Shown here: positions 2 to 7,912 of the stretch, piece by piece | Layout: every line of letters starts with the position of its first letter | Numbering within the stretch: the first letter of the stretch is position 1 | NCBI RefSeq assembly: GCF_003334355.1 | Contig: NZ_QOWP01000062.1 | Direction: 5' to 3' (one strand) | From: Escherichia coli | GTDB taxonomy: Bacteria; Pseudomonadota; Gammaproteobacteria; Enterobacterales; Enterobacteriaceae | DNA: 7,912 nucleotides | Translations under genes and position numbers: made by a program | The notes under the pieces: generated by a model | Told to the model about the DNA's origin: nothing | Database searches by the model: none | What the model saw: the letters and a program-made list of their open reading frames with translations, nothing else

Positions 2-508
2 GAAAAACGAGTATTTTTAGTCATCCTGTTTACCTCTTTCTCAGGGAGTTTAGTCTCCAGGATTTCCGGGGCGGTTCATCGCGCCGAAGTTTTTGATTTT
101 GCCAGTATTGAAGGTAATGAAGAGAACAACGTATGGCTATGCGATTGCGCTAAAGTCTACGGTCACGCGCAGGTGAAAGCTGGCATAGAAGAAGATGCCA
201 TTCCGACGATTCATTACAGTTCGCAGGTGGCGGAATATGCCATTGTGAAAGGTAATTGTGTGTTAAAACATCATGTCTTGATTGGCGGAAATGCCGTGGT
301 ACGTGGTGGACCGATTCTGCTCGACGAGCACGTTGTAATACAAGGTGAGAGCCGTATTACAGGTGCGGTGATAATTGAAAACCATGTGGAGTTAACCGAC
401 CACGCCGTCGTTGAAGCCTTTGATGGCGACACGGTTCATGTCCGTGGTCCAAAAGTCATTAACGGCGAGGAGCGCATTACGCGAACGCCGCTGGCAGGGT
501 TATTATGA
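2..508 (+). CDS. ydcK: YdcK-like hexapeptide-repeat (left-handed beta-helix) acyltransferase-family protein, C-terminal part; 5' end lies upstream of the window
   Basis: Reading frame (codons starting at positions 2,5,8...) is open from the window edge to TGA at 506-508. The GTG at 173 used by the ORF track is internal. The translation shows repeated [LIV]-G-x-x-x-x hexapeptide-like units ([35 protein letters not shown]). Position convergent to rimL matches the E. coli neighbourhood. Confidence 0.8.
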
Positions 509-1039
509 ATCGATAATACGCGCGTATAAGTTCACATCATCATAGGCATCATTCAGGAACTCAGCCTGTTTCAGGCAACCTTCAAGGATAAAACCATTGC
601 GCAAAGCGACCTGGTTGCTTTGCGGATTGTCCACCCGACATTTGATCACGAAGCGTCTAAGTTCACCAGACTGAGCGTAATGATGAATCAATGCCTGCAG
701 CGCCTGAGAAATGATCCCCTGCCCCTGATGAGATTCGTCCAGCCAGTAGCCGATTTCAGCAGTTTTATTCAGTGGTTCAATACGATTAAACGAGATAACG
801 CCGATAAGTTCATCTTCTTTGAAAATCATGAACATTTTGGCATAGCCGCGTTGATGCAACATCACATTACCCTGCACCGTTTTTCGCGTGTCCTCTTCAC
901 TCTGAACGAACTGCGGCCAGTTTAGCGACTGCTGTAACCAGGTTTTATTTTTACAAATTAACTGATAAAGAGGTGTGACGTGACTTTCCGCAACAGCATG
1001 TAATTCAAGTGATTCGCTTACTTTTATCGTTTCAGTCAT
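503..1039 (-). CDS. rimL: Ribosomal-protein L7/L12 serine N-acetyltransferase (GNAT family)
   Basis: The track ORF 503..1054 begins at a TTG. The internal ATG at 1037-1039 ([16 protein letters not shown]...) is preceded by a GGAG Shine-Dalgarno (actGGAGataagATG) and gives 178 aa matching my recollection of RimL. Stop TAA is at 503-505. Confidence 0.88.
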
Positions 1040-1068
1040 CTTATCTCCAGTCAATCCATGCTGTTGTT

Positions 1069-1093
1069 AAAAAAGCCGCCTGGCTGGCGGCTT
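1069..1093 (-). terminator. Rho-independent terminator downstream of ydcH
   Basis: On the minus strand, GCCGCC-agcca-GGCGGC hairpin (plus 1075-1091) followed immediately by TTTTTT (complement of the A-run 1069-1074), about 10 nt after the ydcH stop. Confidence 0.6.
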
Positions 1094-1101
1094 AGGACAG
1101 T

Positions 1102-1326
1102 TTACACCTCTTTGACGCTCTCCTGCTGCAGGATTTTGAGCATCTCATCTTTTAACTGTAGCTTTTGTTTTTTCATGCGGACCACTTCCGCATTGTACCC
1201 TCGACCGTCGGAACCTTCCTTTCTGGCAATTTCATGATCAAGTTTATTGTGTTTATCGAACAAGGACATAAAGCGAGGATTTTCGTTTTTCAGACGGGAT
1301 ATTAAATCTCGGTATTCTGGAAACAT
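1102..1326 (-). CDS. ydcH: Small DUF465-family protein YdcH (74 aa)
   Basis: The track ORF starts at GTG 1330-1332. The ATG at 1324-1326 (MFPEYRDLISRLKNENPRF...) is preceded by GGAG with 5-nt spacing (cagGGAGtgcgtATG) and gives the 74-aa length I recall for YdcH. Stop TAA is at 1102-1104. Confidence 0.82.
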   Translation of the reverse strand: MFPEYRDLISRLKNENPRFMSLFDKHNKLDHEIARKEGSDGRGYNAEVVRMKKQKLQLKDEMLKILQQESVKEV

Positions 1327-1429
1327 ACGCACTCCCTGTTAGTGGCTGACAAGGTGTATCTGAAATACACACCATCAGATTACTCATTTAACTTAGGGAA
1401 AAATGCGAGCGGGATCGTGTTTAACCAGA

Positions 1430-1453
1430 CGGCACCTCCCGAAGAAGGTGCCG
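1430..1453 (-). other. Stable stem-loop immediately 3' of opgD, UUCG-type loop in the minus-strand RNA, no U-tract after it
   Basis: Plus-strand cGGCACCT(1430-1437)/AGGTGCCg(1446-1453) form an 8-bp stem. In the minus-strand transcript the loop is UCUUCGGG, which can close further into C(UUCG)G. It lies 13 nt after the opgD stop; a U-run precedes rather than follows the hairpin, so it is not a canonical intrinsic terminator. Confidence 0.35.
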
Positions 1454-1465
1454 AAGAAAAAACAA

Positions 1466-3121
1466 TTAACTCATCACGCGGTCGTCAACATACTGACGTT
1501 TATCCGGCGCTGGCGGGAAATACTGATACAGCCATGTTTCACTGATAGCGTCCCCCTGACAACGCAGATACATCCGCATATCGACCGGATCAGTGGAGTC
1601 CGACGTCGGATACCAGTCAAACTGAATACGATAACCATCAATGGGTTCAATATAGAGAATTTCGATTTGCTTCGCTTCCCCACTGGAAAGCGTAATCACC
1701 GGCTCAATGCCTTTTGGTGCGGCAGCTTTCAGATCACCACCAACGAAATCGACGGCAAAACGACGCGCCCATTTTTCGGGATAGTGTTCACCTGGCGCCC
1801 AACCTTCCGGGAAACCGCCCATGCCGGTACGCGTCGCCATAACGCGCGCTAATGGGCAATGAACAGGCGGTTGCGCACTCCAGTACAGACGATACTGGAA
1901 TGCAAACTCATCACCCGCTTTTACAGCTTTTTCTGGCTGCCAGAAGCAGACAATGTTATCCAGCGTTTCGCCCGTTGTTGGGATTTCCATCAGGCCGATG
2001 GTGCCCTTACCCCACTTGTTACGCGGTTCCACCCACAGACTTGGGCGTTTGTTATACCAGCCCATAATGTCCTGGTAATGGGAGAAGTCACGATCCAGTT
2101 GCAATAAACCAAACCCTTTCGGATTGTTGTCGGTGTAAGCATTGAACTGCAATTTTTGCGGATTATTCAGCGGACGGCAAATCCACTCGCCGTTGCCCCG
2201 CCACATGGACAGACGATCAGAGTCATGAATTTGCGGATGAATGGTGTCGCACATCCGACGTTCATTAGTACCGCAGCTGAACATACTGGTCATCGGCGCA
2301 ATGCCCAGCTGTTTAATGTCTTTGCGCGCATACAGGTGATTTTCCACATCCATAATCACCTGACTTTTCTCACAATGGATAGTGAACTTATAGGCACCAG
2401 TAATGCTGGCGCTATCGAGCAACGCATAAACGGTAAAGGTAGTTGCCCCCGGTTTTACCGTATCAAACCAGAAGGCGGTAAAGTCGGGGAACTCTTCTTT
2501 ACTGTCGGTGTAAGTGTCGATCGCCAGGCCGCGGGCCGACAAACCGTATTGATATGTATCATCAACGGCGCGGAAATAACTCGCGCCGAGAAATGATACT
2601 ACATCACGGCGCGCCAGTTCGGGGGCTTTAAACACGCGAAAACCGGCAAAGCCGAGATCGCTTTGCCCTTCTAATTGTTTGGTATCAACACCTGCATCGT
2701 TGTATTTGAACAACTCCGGGCGAAAGTGAATTTCACGCGCCAGATGTGTTGCTGGATCTACAGAAAACATACGAACGCGGCGACGGAATCCCATTCCCAT
2801 ATGGAAGAACTGAGCGTCCAGTTGACGGTTCTCAACGTTATGCCAGAGCGATTTTTCGGCGTCGTATTGAATACTGTTATAAGCCTGCGGCGTCATTGTC
2901 GCCAGCGTGTCAGGTAACGGACGAGGCGCACCACGCCACGCTGTTTGCGCTAAGTCGTGCGCCATTGACTGTAGAATGGAGAAGTCAAAACGCTGGGTTT
3001 GCCCGTCGGCAATATCAGAATCTGCCGCGAATGCCGCCTGAGAAAAAAGAGAAGCAATGCCGCTGGTACCGCACACGGCGGCCATAGCCATTGAACCTTT
3101 AATAAATCGTCTACGATCCAT
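1466..3121 (-). CDS. opgD: Glucans biosynthesis protein D (periplasmic, Tat-exported; osmoregulated periplasmic glucan backbone-length control)
   Basis: 551-aa ORF starting at ATG (rc of 3119-3121). N-terminus [35 protein letters not shown] has a twin-arginine motif (RRxFIK) and an AxA cleavage site. Length and sequence match my recollection of E. coli OpgD/MdoD. Confidence 0.93.
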
Positions 3122-3139
3122 ACCTGAAAGTGAGTCCTT

Positions 3140-3250
3140 CTGGTGTTGTGAATGGTCCCGCGCTGGTCGTTTTCAGCGGCAAGAAAGTGCTTATTTATGA
3201 CCGCTCACTCTAGACAATATTTATTAATAATCCAATTGTTGAACTGAGAG
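3140..3250 (-). promoter_or_regulatory. Probable opgD promoter region (AT-rich)
   Basis: Minus-strand sequence upstream of the opgD ATG contains TTGGAT-17 nt-TAGAGT and an overlapping TCATAAAT -10-like element inside a very AT-rich tract (aacaattggattattaataaatattg). No experimental anchor; the exact elements are uncertain. Confidence 0.3.
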
Positions 3251-3291
3251 AATATGCATAAATCGGCATTTTTTTTATGTCGATGGGATGA

Positions 3292-3316
3292 GCCTGATTC
3301 GTTTGTAAAATCAGGC
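3292..3316. other. Stem-loop 30 nt downstream of the ydcJ stop
   Basis: GCCTGATT(3292-3299)/AATCAGGC(3309-3316) 8-bp stem with a 9-nt loop. On the plus strand it is followed by aaaTTTTT; on the minus (ydcJ) strand no U-tract follows. Candidate transcript-end structure, orientation ambiguous. Confidence 0.3.
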
Positions 3317-3345
3317 AAATTTTTGCAAAGGCGGATGGTCAGAAT

Positions 3346-4689
3346 TTAAAGCAAACCACAGCGACGTTTACTGCGTTCTTCCGCTTCCTGATAAAGCTGG
3401 AACTCATCCAAAACCGGACAACCCAACGCCTGCTCAAATGCTTCGCGACTGGCATTACCGTGATTGCGTGCCTGCGTTTCATTACCCAGATTTGACTGGA
3501 AGATCCCCGCCGCGCTAACGGGCAAGAAATCTTCATAGGTAATGGGTTGCGCCGCGACCCAACCACGTTCAATTAAGGGCTGTGGATCGTCTCCGGGATG
3601 AATCGCCTGACGATGCGCCTCACCCGAAGGCGTCAGACGGTACCGGAACCATGCCAGCCCTTGCTGACGCATTAAAAACTCACTGTCAGGAAAAGTGCGG
3701 AAGGTTTCCTGTAAATGCATTTGGTGAGTGAGATTATCCTGCCCGGTTCCAGCGTTACGCAGAAGATCATCATACAGTTGTCGCCCTTTCGGCGTTAATG
3801 CCACGCCACGCTGCTCAATTTCACCAAAGCGCGCAGTATGCGTGCCCTGTTTCTGCCCCGCAAACAACACCGTCTCTTCCAGTGCTTTAAAGCTGGTCTG
3901 GCGTAGTAAAATCGGTACCTCGCGGCGCGGCGGCCCTTCGATCAGAATTTTTGGTTCAATTCCGCATTCAGGCATCATCGACTGCACCCGGTCAATATCC
4001 AGCGTACGTGGCGTCAGATGGTTGATATGGCATCCAGGAAAACAGACCACATCAGCAATCAACCGATGTTCGTTGTGCAAGGCGCGATAGGTTTCTTCAT
4101 CTACCGTTGCTGACTGGTGCCAGCGAAACGTTTCCAGGGCTTCCTGCACAAACTCCTGTGCCTGTGTTTCGTTAAAACCGCCCCGCTGCTCATATTCCTC
4201 TAACAGTAGTCGACAACGTGGGGTGAAGATATCGCGCTGACGTAGAATCTCCGCCGCTTTCTGGCGCAAAATTTCGTTCTCGATAAGCTCAAGGCGGAGT
4301 AACGAGGTAAAAACGCGGAAGGGATTACGCGCCAGAGAAGCATCATCAATGGGCCGAAATGCTGTCGAATGTACCGGCACCCCCGCCTGCGAGAGATCGT
4401 AATAGCTCACCGGGTACATCCCCATAATGGCAAACATCCGCCGAAGAGTAGCAAGCTCTTGTGCAGTCCCAACGCGAATCGCCCCATGACGTTCAACATT
4501 CAGTCGCGCCAGCTCGTCTGCATTTACCATTTTTTCGTGCAGTTGAGGATTGTTTTCCAGCACAGCCAGATTCACATCAGCTACCAGTTCCAGCAGCGTG
4601 CCGTACTGCGGAACTTCTTGCTGGTACATGGCTGACATTGCCTGCGAAAACTGTTCCCGAATCTCATCCGCCGTGATGCTGTTCGCCAT
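3346..4689 (-). CDS. ydcJ: DUF1338-family metalloprotein YdcJ (family includes HglS-type 2-oxoadipate dioxygenase/decarboxylase)
   Basis: 447-aa ORF with ATG start (rc of 4687-4689) preceded by a GGAGG Shine-Dalgarno 8 nt upstream. Stop TAA at 3346-3348. Sequence MANSITADEIREQF... matches my recollection of E. coli YdcJ. The enzymatic assignment is by family membership only. Confidence 0.88.
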   Translation of the reverse strand: MANSITADEIREQFSQAMSAMYQQEVPQYGTLLELVADVNLAVLENNPQLHEKMVNADELARLNVERHGAIRVGTAQELATLRRMFAIMGMYPVSYYDLSQAGVPVHSTAFRPIDDASLARNPFRVFTSLLRLELIENEILRQKAAEILRQRDIFTPRCRLLLEEYEQRGGFNETQAQEFVQEALETFRWHQSATVDEETYRALHNEHRLIADVVCFPGCHINHLTPRTLDIDRVQSMMPECGIEPKILIEGPPRREVPILLRQTSFKALEETVLFAGQKQGTHTARFGEIEQRGVALTPKGRQLYDDLLRNAGTGQDNLTHQMHLQETFRTFPDSEFLMRQQGLAWFRYRLTPSGEAHRQAIHPGDDPQPLIERGWVAAQPITYEDFLPVSAAGIFQSNLGNETQARNHGNASREAFEQALGCPVLDEFQLYQEAEERSKRRCGLL

Positions 4690-4905
4690 ATTGTCTGCCT
4701 CCAGTGGTCAGTAATCTGGAGTGTAGGTAACCGCATTCACTCTGGCGGGAAGAATTTACAAACTGTGATCTCGCCGCGAAAACATCAATATTATCCATTT
4801 TGCTGTAACATGATTGCTTTAATTGTTAATAATATTTTGCAATCAAGTTATCATAATCAAACAACTTCACTTGTCAGCGACACCGCTTCGTTTTTAACAT
4901 CGCTT
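4690..4905. promoter_or_regulatory. Divergent ydcJ/ydcI intergenic control region with AT-rich core and an imperfect palindrome
   Basis: 216-nt gap between divergent starts. Strongly AT-rich 4800-4860. ATTGTTAATAAT (4822-4833) is a 10/12 palindrome of the T-N11-A type expected for LysR-type regulator binding. Several weak -10-like hexamers (TAATAA/TAATAT 4827-4835). Confidence 0.4.
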
Positions 4906-5829
4906 ATGGAAAAAAATAGTCTGTTTAGTCAGCGCATCCGTTTGCGCCACCTTCATACATTCGTAGCTGTCGCACAACAAGGAACTTTGGGGCGCGCGGC
5001 TGAAACCCTTAATTTGAGTCAACCTGCGCTCTCTAAGACATTGAATGAACTGGAGCAGCTGACTGGCGCTCGCTTGTTTGAGCGTGGTCGTCAGGGGGCG
5101 CAACTTACCTTACCCGGCGAACAATTTTTAACGCATGCAGTCAGAGTTCTTGACGCCATCAACACTGCCGGACGGTCGCTTCATCGTAAAGAAGGTCTTA
5201 ATAATGATGTCGTCAGGGTTGGTGCACTACCTACTGCGGCACTGGGGATATTACCTTCGGTTATAGGTCAGTTTCATCAGCAACAAAAAGAGACGACCTT
5301 GCAAGTTGCGACAATGAGTAACCCTATGATTCTGGCGGGTTTAAAAACCGGGGAAATCGATATCGGCATTGGTCGGATGTCAGATCCTGAACTGATGACC
5401 GGGCTTAATTACGAACTGCTGTTTCTTGAATCGTTGAAGCTGGTTGTCCGCCCTAATCACCCGCTACTTCAGGAGAACGTAACGCTAAGCCGGGTGCTGG
5501 AATGGCCGGTCGTTGTATCACCAGAAGGCACTGCGCCACGCCAGCATTCAGATGCATTAGTGCAGAGCCAGGGCTGTAAAATTCCTTCGGGTTGTATCGA
5601 AACGCTGTCTGCTTCGCTATCTCGTCAACTTACGGTTGAATACGATTACGTGTGGTTTGTCCCTTCTGGCGCTGTAAAAGACGACCTGCGTCATGCCACG
5701 CTGGTGGCCCTGCCTGTTCCGGGACATGGTGCAGGCGAACCGATTGGAATACTGACCCGCGTAGATGCGACGTTCTCTTCTGGTTGCCAGTTGATGATTA
5801 ACGCTATTCGAAAATCAATGCCGTTCTGA
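4906..5829 (+). CDS. ydcI: LysR-type transcriptional regulator YdcI (307 aa)
   Basis: Although the frame is open from 4765, the ATG at 4906 (MEKNSLFSQRIRLRHLHTFVAVAQQGTLGRAAETLNLSQPALSKTL...) puts the helix-turn-helix at the extreme N-terminus as in LysR-type regulators and gives the 307-aa length I recall. Stop TGA at 5827-5829. Confidence 0.88.
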   Translation: MEKNSLFSQRIRLRHLHTFVAVAQQGTLGRAAETLNLSQPALSKTLNELEQLTGARLFERGRQGAQLTLPGEQFLTHAVRVLDAINTAGRSLHRKEGLNNDVVRVGALPTAALGILPSVIGQFHQQQKETTLQVATMSNPMILAGLKTGEIDIGIGRMSDPELMTGLNYELLFLESLKLVVRPNHPLLQENVTLSRVLEWPVVVSPEGTAPRQHSDALVQSQGCKIPSGCIETLSASLSRQLTVEYDYVWFVPSGAVKDDLRHATLVALPVPGHGAGEPIGILTRVDATFSSGCQLMINAIRKSMPF

Positions 5830-5836
5830 AAGGTGA

Positions 5837-5854
5837 AGGGATCTGTCGATCCCT
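5837..5854. terminator. GC-rich hairpin in the 37-nt gap between convergent ydcI and trg (probable bidirectional terminator)
   Basis: AGGGATC(5837-5843)-tgtc-GATCCCT(5848-5854) is a perfect 7-bp stem. Followed by cattTTC... on plus and cacCTTTC on minus; both U-tracts are short. Confidence 0.45.
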
Positions 5855-5866
5855 CCTTGAACATTT

Positions 5867-7507
5867 TCACACCGTAGCGAAACTAACTGGTTCACCCGCT
5901 CCGCGAGGTTCTGCCGACACAGAATGTTTGTGCAGACGGAATACATCCACCGCCTCAGTTAATCGTGCCGCCTGTTCTTCAAGGGACACCGCCGCCGCTG
6001 AGGCCTCTTCTACCAGAGAAGCATTCTGTTGCGTCACCTTATCCATTTCAGAAATCGCCTGGCTAACCTGCGTTATGCCTCTACTTTGTTCATCCGAGGC
6101 GGCGGCGATTTCCTGCATGATATGTGTGACACTCGCGACGGCATCAACAATAGTGCTCATGGTTTTCCCGGCCGTTGCCACCTCATCCGACCCCAGGTCA
6201 ATTAACCTGACTGATTCACTGATCAAGCCTTCAATCTCTTTCGCCGCCTGAGCGCTGCGACTTGCGAGTGTCCGTACTTCGCTGGCGACAACGGCAAATC
6301 CACGCCCTTGCTCACCCGCTCGCGCGGCTTCAACGGCAGCATTCAGTGCCAGAATATTCGTCTGGAAAGCAATACTGTTGATGACGGCGGTGATCTCAGA
6401 AATTTTCTTCGAACTCGTGGAGATAGCGCCCATCGTTTTTACTACACCGGAAACCGTCTGCCCGCCATCGCTGGCTTTAATAGAAGCCTCTTGCGCCAGT
6501 TTGCTGGCATGATGCGCGTTATCCGCATTCTGTTTCACCGTCGCAGTGAGTTGCTCCATGCTGGCGGCAGTTTGTTCGATAGCCGCCGCTTATTCTTCGG
6601 TGCGAGATGACAGGTCCGCATTGCCAGCTGAAATTTCGCTGGTGCCACGATAAATCTCTTCCGCGCCCTGTCGAACAGTCCCTACTGTCATCCCCAGTGA
6701 ATGCTGCATTTGCTGTAAATGACGACTTAAGCGACCGATTTCATTACGACCCGCCGGTTCATCATTCATCGTCAGATCGCCACTGGCGATTTTTTCAATC
6801 CGTTGTGCGGCATGTTGCAGTGGACGAATGACGATCCGACGTAGCACCATAAATGTTATCAGCGTCATGACCAGGGCAAGCACAAACGCGCCAATCATGA
6901 ACATCCCACCCAGGCGGGTGCGCTGATGGGCCAGTTCCGCCAGTTGGTTGGCTCTGGTGCTACGTATCTTAACGGCTTTGTTCAAAATATCGGTATAAGC
7001 ATTATCCAGCGGTCGGATCTGCTCACTTTCATGATTGATAATCGCTTCAAACATGCCATTTTTGGCATATTTCAACATAGGTTGCATACCCGTGATATAA
7101 GCCTGAAAGCGTTGATTTAATTCAGTGTCGAGGGCTTCATCAGCAGGTGTTTTCACCGGTCGATTCTGATAAGCACGATAACCTTGCTGCGACTGTTTAA
7201 TCTCCGATTCGGCTTGCGCAATATTTCGCTTCATTGCTTCCATTTCCGCAATACGACTCGCAGCCCCGGCCTGAATCATATTGATCCGGGCTGAACGCAA
7301 AAAATCTGAACTGTTCGCTAACCCGGTCCGAATCTCAATCTCCGCAGTAACATCACGCTGATCGCGATCGGCCTGCCAGAGGAAATAGCCAGCCAGAGCA
7401 GAACTTAATGCGAATAGAACTAAGATACCGCCAAGAATGCAGGCAAATAACGGAACCAGCCTGATGTGATGCAAAAAACCTAATCGATGTGAGGGAGTTG
7501 TATTCAT
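5867..7507 (-). pseudogene. trg: Methyl-accepting chemotaxis protein III (ribose/galactose chemoreceptor) with an in-frame premature TAA at codon 306
   Basis: Track ORFs 6590..7507 (305 aa, MNTTPSHRLGF...) and 5867..6559 (230 aa) are in the same frame. The first ends SSRTEE-TAA (plus 6590-6592); the 10 intervening codons read [10 protein letters not shown], then [15 protein letters not shown]... continues into the conserved signalling domain. 305 + 1 + 10 + 230 = 546 codons, the full length I recall for Trg. Confidence 0.8.
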
Positions 7508-7546
7508 TACCGTTGTCTCTCGTCCAGGTTTACTCCTGATAGAAAG

Positions 7547-7573
7547 TCATCGGCACTTGACGGTAATTACTTA
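7547..7573 (-). promoter_or_regulatory. Candidate sigma28 (FliA) promoter for trg
   Basis: Minus-strand GCCGATGA (plus 7547-7554) matches the sigma28 -10 consensus GCCGATAA at 7/8 and lies about 40 nt upstream of the trg ATG. An 11-nt spacer separates it from TAAGTAAT (plus 7566-7573), a 4/8 match to TAAAGTTT. trg is a known flagellar class 3 gene. Confidence 0.4.
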
Positions 7574-7724
7574 TGACCAAAAACCTCTTTGCGTCACATT
7601 TTTACAACAATTATTGCAAAGAAAATTAATGCTATTGGAATGAAGAGAGTAACGAATGGCTAAACTGGCTAACCCGAATGACGAAAAATTCTGGAAAACA
7701 GCACGCAATTTCGTGAAGTGATTA

Positions 7725-7753
7725 TTTTCGTCCCTAAGGAAACCTCATAGGAT
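7725..7753 (+). promoter_or_regulatory. Possible promoter for the hok-type toxin mRNA (hokB/mokB transcript)
   Basis: TTTTCG-17 nt-TAGGAT (weak) placed just upstream of a sequence (from about 7758: GGGUGCCUGAGACUUUCUGUUUUCAGGC) that resembles, from memory, the 5' end of plasmid R1 hok mRNA. That 5' region forms an 8-bp hairpin (7764-7771/7780-7787). Confidence 0.25.
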
Positions 7754-7799
7754 GCCTGCGGGTGCCTGAGACTTTCTGTTTTCAGGCTAACCGGGAATC

Positions 7800-7853
7800 A
7801 GAAAGACGAAGGCCCCGACCGATATTTCTATCAACTGTACTGCACCCATTTTG
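7800..7853 (-). ncRNA. sokB: Putative Sok-type antisense RNA (sokB-like); ends approximate
   Basis: Transcript predicted from the strong minus-strand promoter at 7861-7889. It is antisense to the toxin mRNA leader just upstream of the putative mokB start. The complementary plus-strand leader (CAGAAAGACGAAGGCCCCG) resembles the R1 hok leader I recall. The 3' end is not defined by a clear terminator. Confidence 0.4.
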
Positions 7854-7860
7854 TTGGACG

Positions 7861-7889
7861 ATGAAATGGAATAGCCCCTAATATGTCAA
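7861..7889 (-). promoter_or_regulatory. Near-consensus sigma70 promoter on the minus strand (antisense/Sok promoter)
   Basis: Minus strand reads TTGACA (plus 7884-7889), a 17-nt spacer, then TTTCAT (plus 7861-7866). The -35 is a perfect consensus, the spacing is optimal and the -10 is 4/6. The -35 overlaps the plus-strand ATG at 7883. Confidence 0.5.
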
Positions 7890-7912
7890 AGCCAAAATAC
7901 CCTTTTGAAAAG
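7883..7912 (+). CDS. mokB: 5' end of putative mokB-like reading frame (hok/sok family modulator ORF), truncated by the window edge
   Basis: ATG at 7883 opens MSKPKYPFEK..., which runs off the window. It starts like R1 Mok (MSSPHQ..., from memory) and sits where the antisense promoter overlaps. No Shine-Dalgarno is visible. The Hok toxin ORF would lie beyond 7912. Confidence 0.3.
   Translation, partial: MSKPKYPFEK

Follow-up and report, generated by a model that had tools for sequence, protein, structure and literature searches.

An IS150 element splits the chromosomal hokB/mokB/sokB toxin-antitoxin locus beside trg in Escherichia coli

Our results indicate, with a probability that we place at roughly nine in ten, that the right edge of the window (the stretch of 7,912 nucleotides of Escherichia coli DNA analyzed here) contains the promoter-proximal part of the chromosomal hokB/mokB/sokB type I toxin-antitoxin locus, which is split by the insertion sequence IS150 at 7835/7836 and is most probably inactivated as a regulated unit. 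The window contains the presumed hokB promoter, nucleotides 1 to 76 of the hokB mRNA, the terminator-proximal 34 nt of sokB on the opposite strand, and 77 nt of IS150 (Table 1). An initial annotation of this DNA had recognized that only part of the locus lies in the window, but it attributed the missing toxin open reading frame (ORF) merely to the window edge. The hokB locus is in fact interrupted physically, and not simply cut off where the window ends. What is said below of the locus beyond position 7912 is drawn from genomes other than the source genome.

Table 1. Features of the split hokB locus at the right edge of the window
Feature	Position	Strand	Basis or remark
Presumed hokB promoter region	7725..7759	+	Presumed from position only; identical to K-12 upstream of hokB
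hokB mRNA leader, 5' 76 nt	7760..7835	+	RF01794 positions 1-81; identity to K-12 leader; fold
tac stem-loop	7760-7816	+	Part of the hokB leader
Small hairpin, the loop region of the Sok target/terminator stem	7821-7832	+	Part of the hokB leader
sokB, 3' 34 nt (SokB nt 24-57)	7802..7835	-	Mapped via K-12 sokB (b4429, L002 620-676), identical sequence
AAC, left copy of the 3-bp target-site duplication	7833..7835	.	Relatives compared with uninterrupted K-12
IS150 nt 1-77: left inverted repeat (TGTACTGCACCC...) and 5' untranslated region into insJ	7836..7912	+	Identity to K-12 IS150; annotation
insJ (IS150 orfA), first 10 codons (MSKPKYPFEK)	7883..7912	+	Translation equals the K-12 InsJ N terminus
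TTGACA-17-TTTCAT motif, IS150 nt 26-54, outward toward trg, in every IS150 copy	7861..7889	-	Sequence

The only match to Rfam in the entire window was RF01794 ("sok"), which aligned to 7760-7912 on the plus strand with 72.4 bits, above the gathering score of 59 bits. This model comprises 157 positions in the sense of the hok mRNA, extending from the 5' end of the mRNA to the hok start codon, and its position 1 aligns at 7760. When the segment 7700-7835 was scanned, 7760-7835 alone matched positions 1 to 81 with 56.0 bits and an E value of 1.9e-12, flagged as 3' truncated, and these 76 nt are identical to the 5' leader of the hokB mRNA of E. coli K-12. The matches to RF01794 are far from chance, and the proposal of the initial annotation that a hok/sok-type leader lies beside trg is therefore correct; the adjacency to trg itself agrees with the annotation of near-identical genomes and of K-12. 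All of the sequence strings that it quoted are present at about the positions it gave. Two of its three leader motifs, at 7764-7787 and 7800-7819, are real and far beyond chance, each being one base longer than had been written, whereas the third, AUAGCCCC at 7871-7878, is IS150 sequence.

The Rfam covariance scan that had been suggested as a check thus does return RF01794 above its gathering score, although the 3' half of the match is IS150. When nucleotides 1 to 264 of the IS150 left end were scanned by themselves, no Rfam match was obtained at E <= 10, and we therefore rejected the possibility that this end is a homolog of hok leaders. It follows that the 16 bits gained by the full-length match over the leader alone are an effect of glocal alignment and not of homology. 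The full-length alignment in the window also falls 37 bits below that of the uninterrupted K-12 hokB locus (109.7 bits), with its noncanonical pairs clustering in the 3' half. In strain AR_0019, the sequence immediately after the right end of IS150 matched RF01794 positions 80 to 157 with 41.5 bits, flagged as 5' truncated. The half-scores on either side of IS150 show that the model is cut in two at position 80/81, and the end-to-end alignment in the window is an artifact in which the 3' half is forced onto IS150.

Folding of the 76-nt leader fragment gave the expected tac stem-loop, with a free energy of -28.5 kcal/mol and a z score of -4.5. In AR_0019, a site located ~36 to 60 nt downstream of hokB pairs with the leader's 5' 20 nt at -24.8 kcal/mol, a value reached by none of 500 shuffled sequences (-15.3 +/- 2.4 kcal/mol). 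The complementarity between tac and fbi is thus retained, with the fbi partner located outside the window. The sokB part in the window consists of the loop, the 3' arm of the terminator hairpin, and the U-rich tail. A complete sok gene, with a promoter of its own and overlap with the mok start, is not found in the window, which holds only the part of SokB given in Table 1, and the annotation of K-12 places the sokB promoter and 5' end beyond IS150. Likewise, the window contains neither a hydrophobic Hok ORF of ~50 amino acids directly after the leader nor a mok reading frame that begins within the leader and extends into hok, the ATG at 7883 being that of insJ. Upstream of the leader, a -10-like TAGGAT is present at 7748-7753, 7 nt before the leader start, and the -35 region is weak. 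A consensus promoter and terminator scan of both strands of 7450-7912 made no call (0.8 expected by chance) and thus lends support neither to the presumed hokB promoter nor to the minus-strand motif at 7861-7889.

The sequence that follows the leader, 7836-7912, is identical at 77 of 77 positions to nucleotides 1 to 77 of the annotated IS150 of K-12, beginning with TGTACTGCACCCATTTTGTTGGACG..., and matching genomes annotate an "IS3-like element IS150 family transposase" at this spot. The ATG at 7883, which had been taken as a start within the toxin-antitoxin locus, is the start codon of insJ (IS150 nt 48), and the 10 residues encoded from it in the window are the N terminus of InsJ. Similarly, the minus-strand promoter motif described at 7861-7889, TTGACA-TATTAGGGGCTATTCCA-TTTCAT, is present with its perfect -35 element and 17-nt spacer, but it is a segment of IS150 and not the sok promoter. 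Its -10 element, TTTCAT, matches the consensus at four of six positions, without the near-invariant A at position 2. A published reporter assay covering both strands used the wild-type left end of IS150 (150 bp) as a parent sequence on account of its lack of detectable promoter activity (PMC12095673). We regard this assay as supporting and not decisive, because other claimed IS150 promoters also did not register in it.

Comparison of related genomes with the uninterrupted site defined the insertion. The K-12 site reads TATCAACCGAGG (in longer context, ...GACCGATATTTCTATCAACCGAGGCCAACGAATGAACC...), whereas the junctions in relatives read ...TATCAAC / IS150 / AACCGAGG..., with AACCGAGGCC... as the longer right context. 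A duplicated AAC flanks a 1443-bp IS150 in strains AR_0019, ECSC054, and AVS0790; the window has the left copy only. The elements in related genomes are 1443 bp long, differ from the K-12 IS150 at zero or one position (zero in AR_0019 and PSS-12), and carry orfA (insJ) and orfB (insK) with an annotated programmed frameshift. The insertion follows SokB nt 23-26, corresponding to hokB leader nt 76, and in the fold of intact SokB this point lies within the 5' arm of the terminator hairpin; SokB nt 24-26 are duplicated beyond IS150 as part of the AAC repeat. Two variants of the junction were observed. At the right junction of PSS-12 (L003 12203-12206), AACCCGAGG is found where other strains have AACCGAGG, and the extra C may be either a true indel or an error in the sequencing of a homopolymer. 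Strain IR53017 (L009 2028-2047) displays a deletion scar at this insertion site. Of IS150, only nt 1 to 20 of the left repeat remain, and they adjoin AGCCTCTTACCC of the hokB leader without a gap; the deletion has removed all other IS150 sequence together with the 5' end of SokB, the start of mokB, and part of the promoter of sokB, and hokB has been kept.

In the related genomes, IS150 is followed first by SokB nt 1-26 together with the promoter of sokB and then by the start of mokB, an intact hokB, and, at the 3' end, fbi. The mokB ATG lies 15 nt past the right end of IS150 and the hokB ORF 73 nt past it, and the latter encodes an intact HokB protein of 49 amino acids that is identical to that of K-12. 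The expectation of a Hok ORF within ~300 nt of 7883 thus fails in these genomes, where hokB starts ~1.47 kb downstream of this position, past the 1443-bp element. For the split locus as a whole, a Hok ORF is present but is not contiguous with the leader, from which it is separated by 1443 bp plus 73 nt. The closest genome, PSS-12, is 100% identical to the window over positions 77-7912, and here trg (a pseudogene) is followed by IS150, hokB, yncP, ydcA, and cybB. The gene for the small RNA RydC (RF00505, 92.5 bits; L001 6118-6181) is located downstream of ydcA as in K-12, which indicates that synteny is conserved beyond the split locus.

On the other side of the locus, the gene order in near-identical complete genomes is rimL, ydcH, opgD, hglS (ydcJ), ydcI, and trg, followed by the split locus; trg corresponds to window positions 5867-7507, and the order in K-12 is the same. 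In the window, a CAA-to-TAA nonsense mutation at codon 306 of trg (6590-6592, minus strand) leaves ORFs of 305 and 230 amino acids. This stop is shared with PSS-12, where it is annotated as an "internal stop," and AR_0019 has CAA. At the opposite edge, positions 1-78 are the outer end of a second element of the IS3 family, present as the reverse complement (TGAACCGCCCCGG...), with an orfA product that starts with MTKNTRFS. This element, which resembles those of the IS629/IS1203 type, interrupts ydcK. PSS-12, otherwise identical, has an intact, uninterrupted ydcK and thus differs from the window outside 77-7912. On either side, the window terminates ~77 nt into an insertion sequence (1-78 and 7836-7912), which suggests an entire short-read contig that was broken off at repeats and has an overlap of k-mer size. 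Such a break would explain why the toxin gene is missing.

Of 5426 complete E. coli genomes, about 645 have the junction of the leader with IS150, as judged with a query for which 80% coverage can be reached only by a true junction, and the uninterrupted site is found in 4424. Flank identity among the junction-bearing genomes ranges from 99.7% down to ~95 to 97%. The same junction is found in 2014C-3011 (L007), where IS150 is truncated after ~170 bp and followed by IS2 and phage genes and trg has an internal stop, and in AVS0790 (L008), where trg is truncated at the N terminus. We also compared related loci (L004 2541, L011, L012, L014, and L013). IS150 occupies the homologous spot in hokC (PKF8 and ET625; duplication ACC), hokE (T2; CCC), and hokA (EC27; AAG), where it is flanked by 3-bp duplications and oriented, with respect to hok, as in hokB. 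On plasmid pEC6563-MCR it adjoins a hok-like leader, again in the same orientation. In these hokC, hokE, hokA, and plasmid cases, the element lies just 5' of the 3' arm of the hairpin, which has the sequence YGRGGCY. The base of the Sok terminator hairpin is therefore a recurrent target of IS150 in hok paralogs.

An IS150-split hokB/sokB locus is an already known kind of event, common and previously described for chromosomal hok/sok loci, even though a literature search on the two names hokB and IS150 returned no publication that pairs them. hok/sok loci have been described as insertion hotspots for mobile elements (bioRxiv 10.1101/527788), and independent de novo insertions of IS150 arose at trg/mokB, hokC/nhaA, and hokE during experimental evolution (PMC5419217). 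In the latter study, which used REL4536, the same element entered the same trg-mokB intergenic region in several independent lineages. Those insertions are laboratory mutations of E. coli B that can be compared with ours by region and not by base, whereas the allele in the window is natural and occurs in hundreds of isolates. In PMC11551753, which cites Pedersen and Gerdes 1999, sokE::IS150 is listed for XL1-Blue and for >400 natural isolates and sokA::IS150 for MG1655; here the same element disrupts sok and the hok leader of another paralog.

The K-12 locus (hokB, mokB, and sokB; b4428, b1420, and b4429) has the same leader as 7760-7835 on the same side of trg, and its downstream half and HokB protein are identical or nearly identical to those of the relatives of the window; it differs in being uninterrupted. 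The insertions in hokE of T2 and hokA of EC27 are homologous to the hokB case in position, orientation, and 3-bp duplication. The hokA locus of K-12 is unlike it, as IS150 there is inverted, with an adjacent deletion of ~40 nt and no duplication. With respect to hok/sok of plasmid R1, the tac stem-loop, the Sok target region, and the tac-fbi pairing can be recognized in the window and its relatives, but the locus analyzed here is a chromosomal paralog and is physically split.

In the hok/sok paradigm, the full-length mRNA is held inert by an initial pairing of tac, at its 5' end, with fbi, at its 3' end; after 3' processing, tac pairs with ucb, which frees the mok Shine-Dalgarno sequence and exposes the Sok target (PMC9841398). 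Point mutations in the tac stem of R1 hok abolish Hok toxicity (PMC9841398). In the split locus, the hokB promoter and tac would be separated from mokB, hokB, and fbi by the 1.44 kb of IS150. Transcripts from the hokB promoter would run into IS150 and would not reach hokB, a hokB transcript originating from the IS side would not carry the 5' tac needed for pairing with fbi and then with ucb before translation of mok and hok, and SokB would lose its terminator hairpin. Taken together, these three effects suggest that the module has most probably ceased to work as a regulated toxin-antitoxin unit, in line with what has been proposed for other chromosomal hok loci disrupted by insertion sequences. 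Chromosomal hok loci have been described as largely inactive for postsegregational killing (bioRxiv 10.1101/2025.08.07.668861). Counting against inactivation, the hokB ORF, the mokB start, and the sokB promoter are all intact downstream of IS150 in related genomes. A modest outward-facing promoter has been reported for the 3' end of IS150 (PMC11101190), and because this end faces hokB in the split locus, some expression of hokB, together with some SokB-derived antisense RNA, may persist.

Two readings in which no IS150 splits the locus were found to be very improbable. The initial annotation had in effect assumed an intact hok/sok locus cut by the window edge, with the sok promoter at 7861-7889 on the minus strand, the mok start at 7883, and Hok within ~300 nt. 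In agreement with this, RF01794 aligns end to end over 7760-7912 above its gathering score, the TTGACA-17-TTTCAT motif faces an ATG, and AUAGCCCC resembles the AGCCUCUUACC box of hok leaders. However, the 77-of-77 identity of 7836-7912 to IS150, the assignment of the ORF to insJ, the deficit of 37 bits relative to an uninterrupted locus with noncanonical pairs in the 3' half, and the lack of any Rfam match to the IS150 end alone are difficult to reconcile with it. In all related genomes examined, the next 1.37 kb is the IS150 transposase, with hokB lying beyond, and this refutes an intact locus for those genomes. Alternatively, the junction could be an assembly chimera produced by the collapse of a contig end onto a repeat, and the ~77 nt of insertion sequence at both ends are indeed typical of short-read contigs that break at repeats. 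Nevertheless, about 645 complete genomes contain the identical junction together with a full 1443-bp IS150 and its 3-bp duplication, and one of them is 100% identical to the window over 77-7912. As the junction is found with its target duplication in hundreds of complete genomes, we reject an assembly artifact, to which we would assign hardly any probability.

A reading that accepts the insertion but differs as to its consequence is that the split locus has been rewired and is not dead. A promoter at the 3' end of IS150 would then produce a tac-less mokB/hokB mRNA, and the sokB promoter would produce a chimeric RNA of ~110 nt, predicted to repress hokB and to consist of SokB nt 1-26 followed by IS150 antisense sequence up to a hairpin inside the IS150 right end; the fixed orientation of IS150 in hok loci would be the result of selection for such an arrangement. 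In favor of this reading, an unchanged hokB ORF, together with the start of mokB and the promoter of sokB, has been retained beside the element in backgrounds whose flanks differ by ~3 to 5%, and an outward promoter has been reported at the IS150 3' end (PMC11101190). On the minus strand, the IS150 right end contains a terminator-like hairpin (L001 5436-5402; IS150 nt 1366-1400) whose 15-bp stem is followed by a T-run, this hairpin forms in the predicted chimeric SokB-IS150 RNA, and the orientation of IS150 is the same in the examined hokA, hokB, hokC, and hokE insertions. On the other hand, this terminator-like match is a single one, below the 2.0 expected by chance in that stretch, and a reporter assay detected no promoter activity in the 150-bp ends of IS150 (PMC12095673). 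The loss of R1 hok toxicity upon mutation of the tac stem (PMC9841398) leads us to expect that a tac-less mRNA would be poorly translated. Moreover, the K-12 hokA insertion is oppositely oriented, and a bias in orientation could stem from asymmetric target recognition. That the hokB ORF is unchanged across divergent backgrounds is consistent with both inactivation and rewiring. We therefore consider rewiring quite unlikely and inactivation the preferred reading. As a separate observation, the antisense hairpin near the IS150 right end could stop transcription that enters the element from outside, including transcription from the sokB promoter.

The recurrence of the insertion raises a broader idea, which we regard as rather unlikely: that IS150 homes, always in one orientation, to the point where the loop of the Sok terminator/hok target hairpin meets its 3' arm (YGRGGCY), in every hok paralog and in plasmid hok-like leaders, and that the resulting unit may be rewired. 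If this were the case, it would imply a structure- or sequence-specific choice of target by a transposase of the IS3 family. Similarity of the target to their own inverted repeats is known for some elements of this family. Comparison of the insertion target with the IS150 inverted repeats by eye revealed only a short likeness, GGCCAAC to GTCCAAC, in the right flank of hokB, and the notion was dropped because this resemblance is absent from hokC and hokE. That hok loci are a hotspot is already in the literature; a defined target rule together with functional rewiring would be new.

By itself, the split hokB locus carries little weight, as it is another chromosomal hok/sok module disrupted by IS150, like those at sokA, sokE, and trg/mokB. 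It does provide a warning for annotation. The Rfam "sok" model spans the IS150 junction and still passes its gathering score, and automated pipelines can therefore call a split locus as an intact sok/hok leader. The finding also bears on studies of hokB-dependent persistence. Approximately one-eighth of complete E. coli genomes carry the split allele, and results obtained with K-12 may therefore not transfer to those strains.
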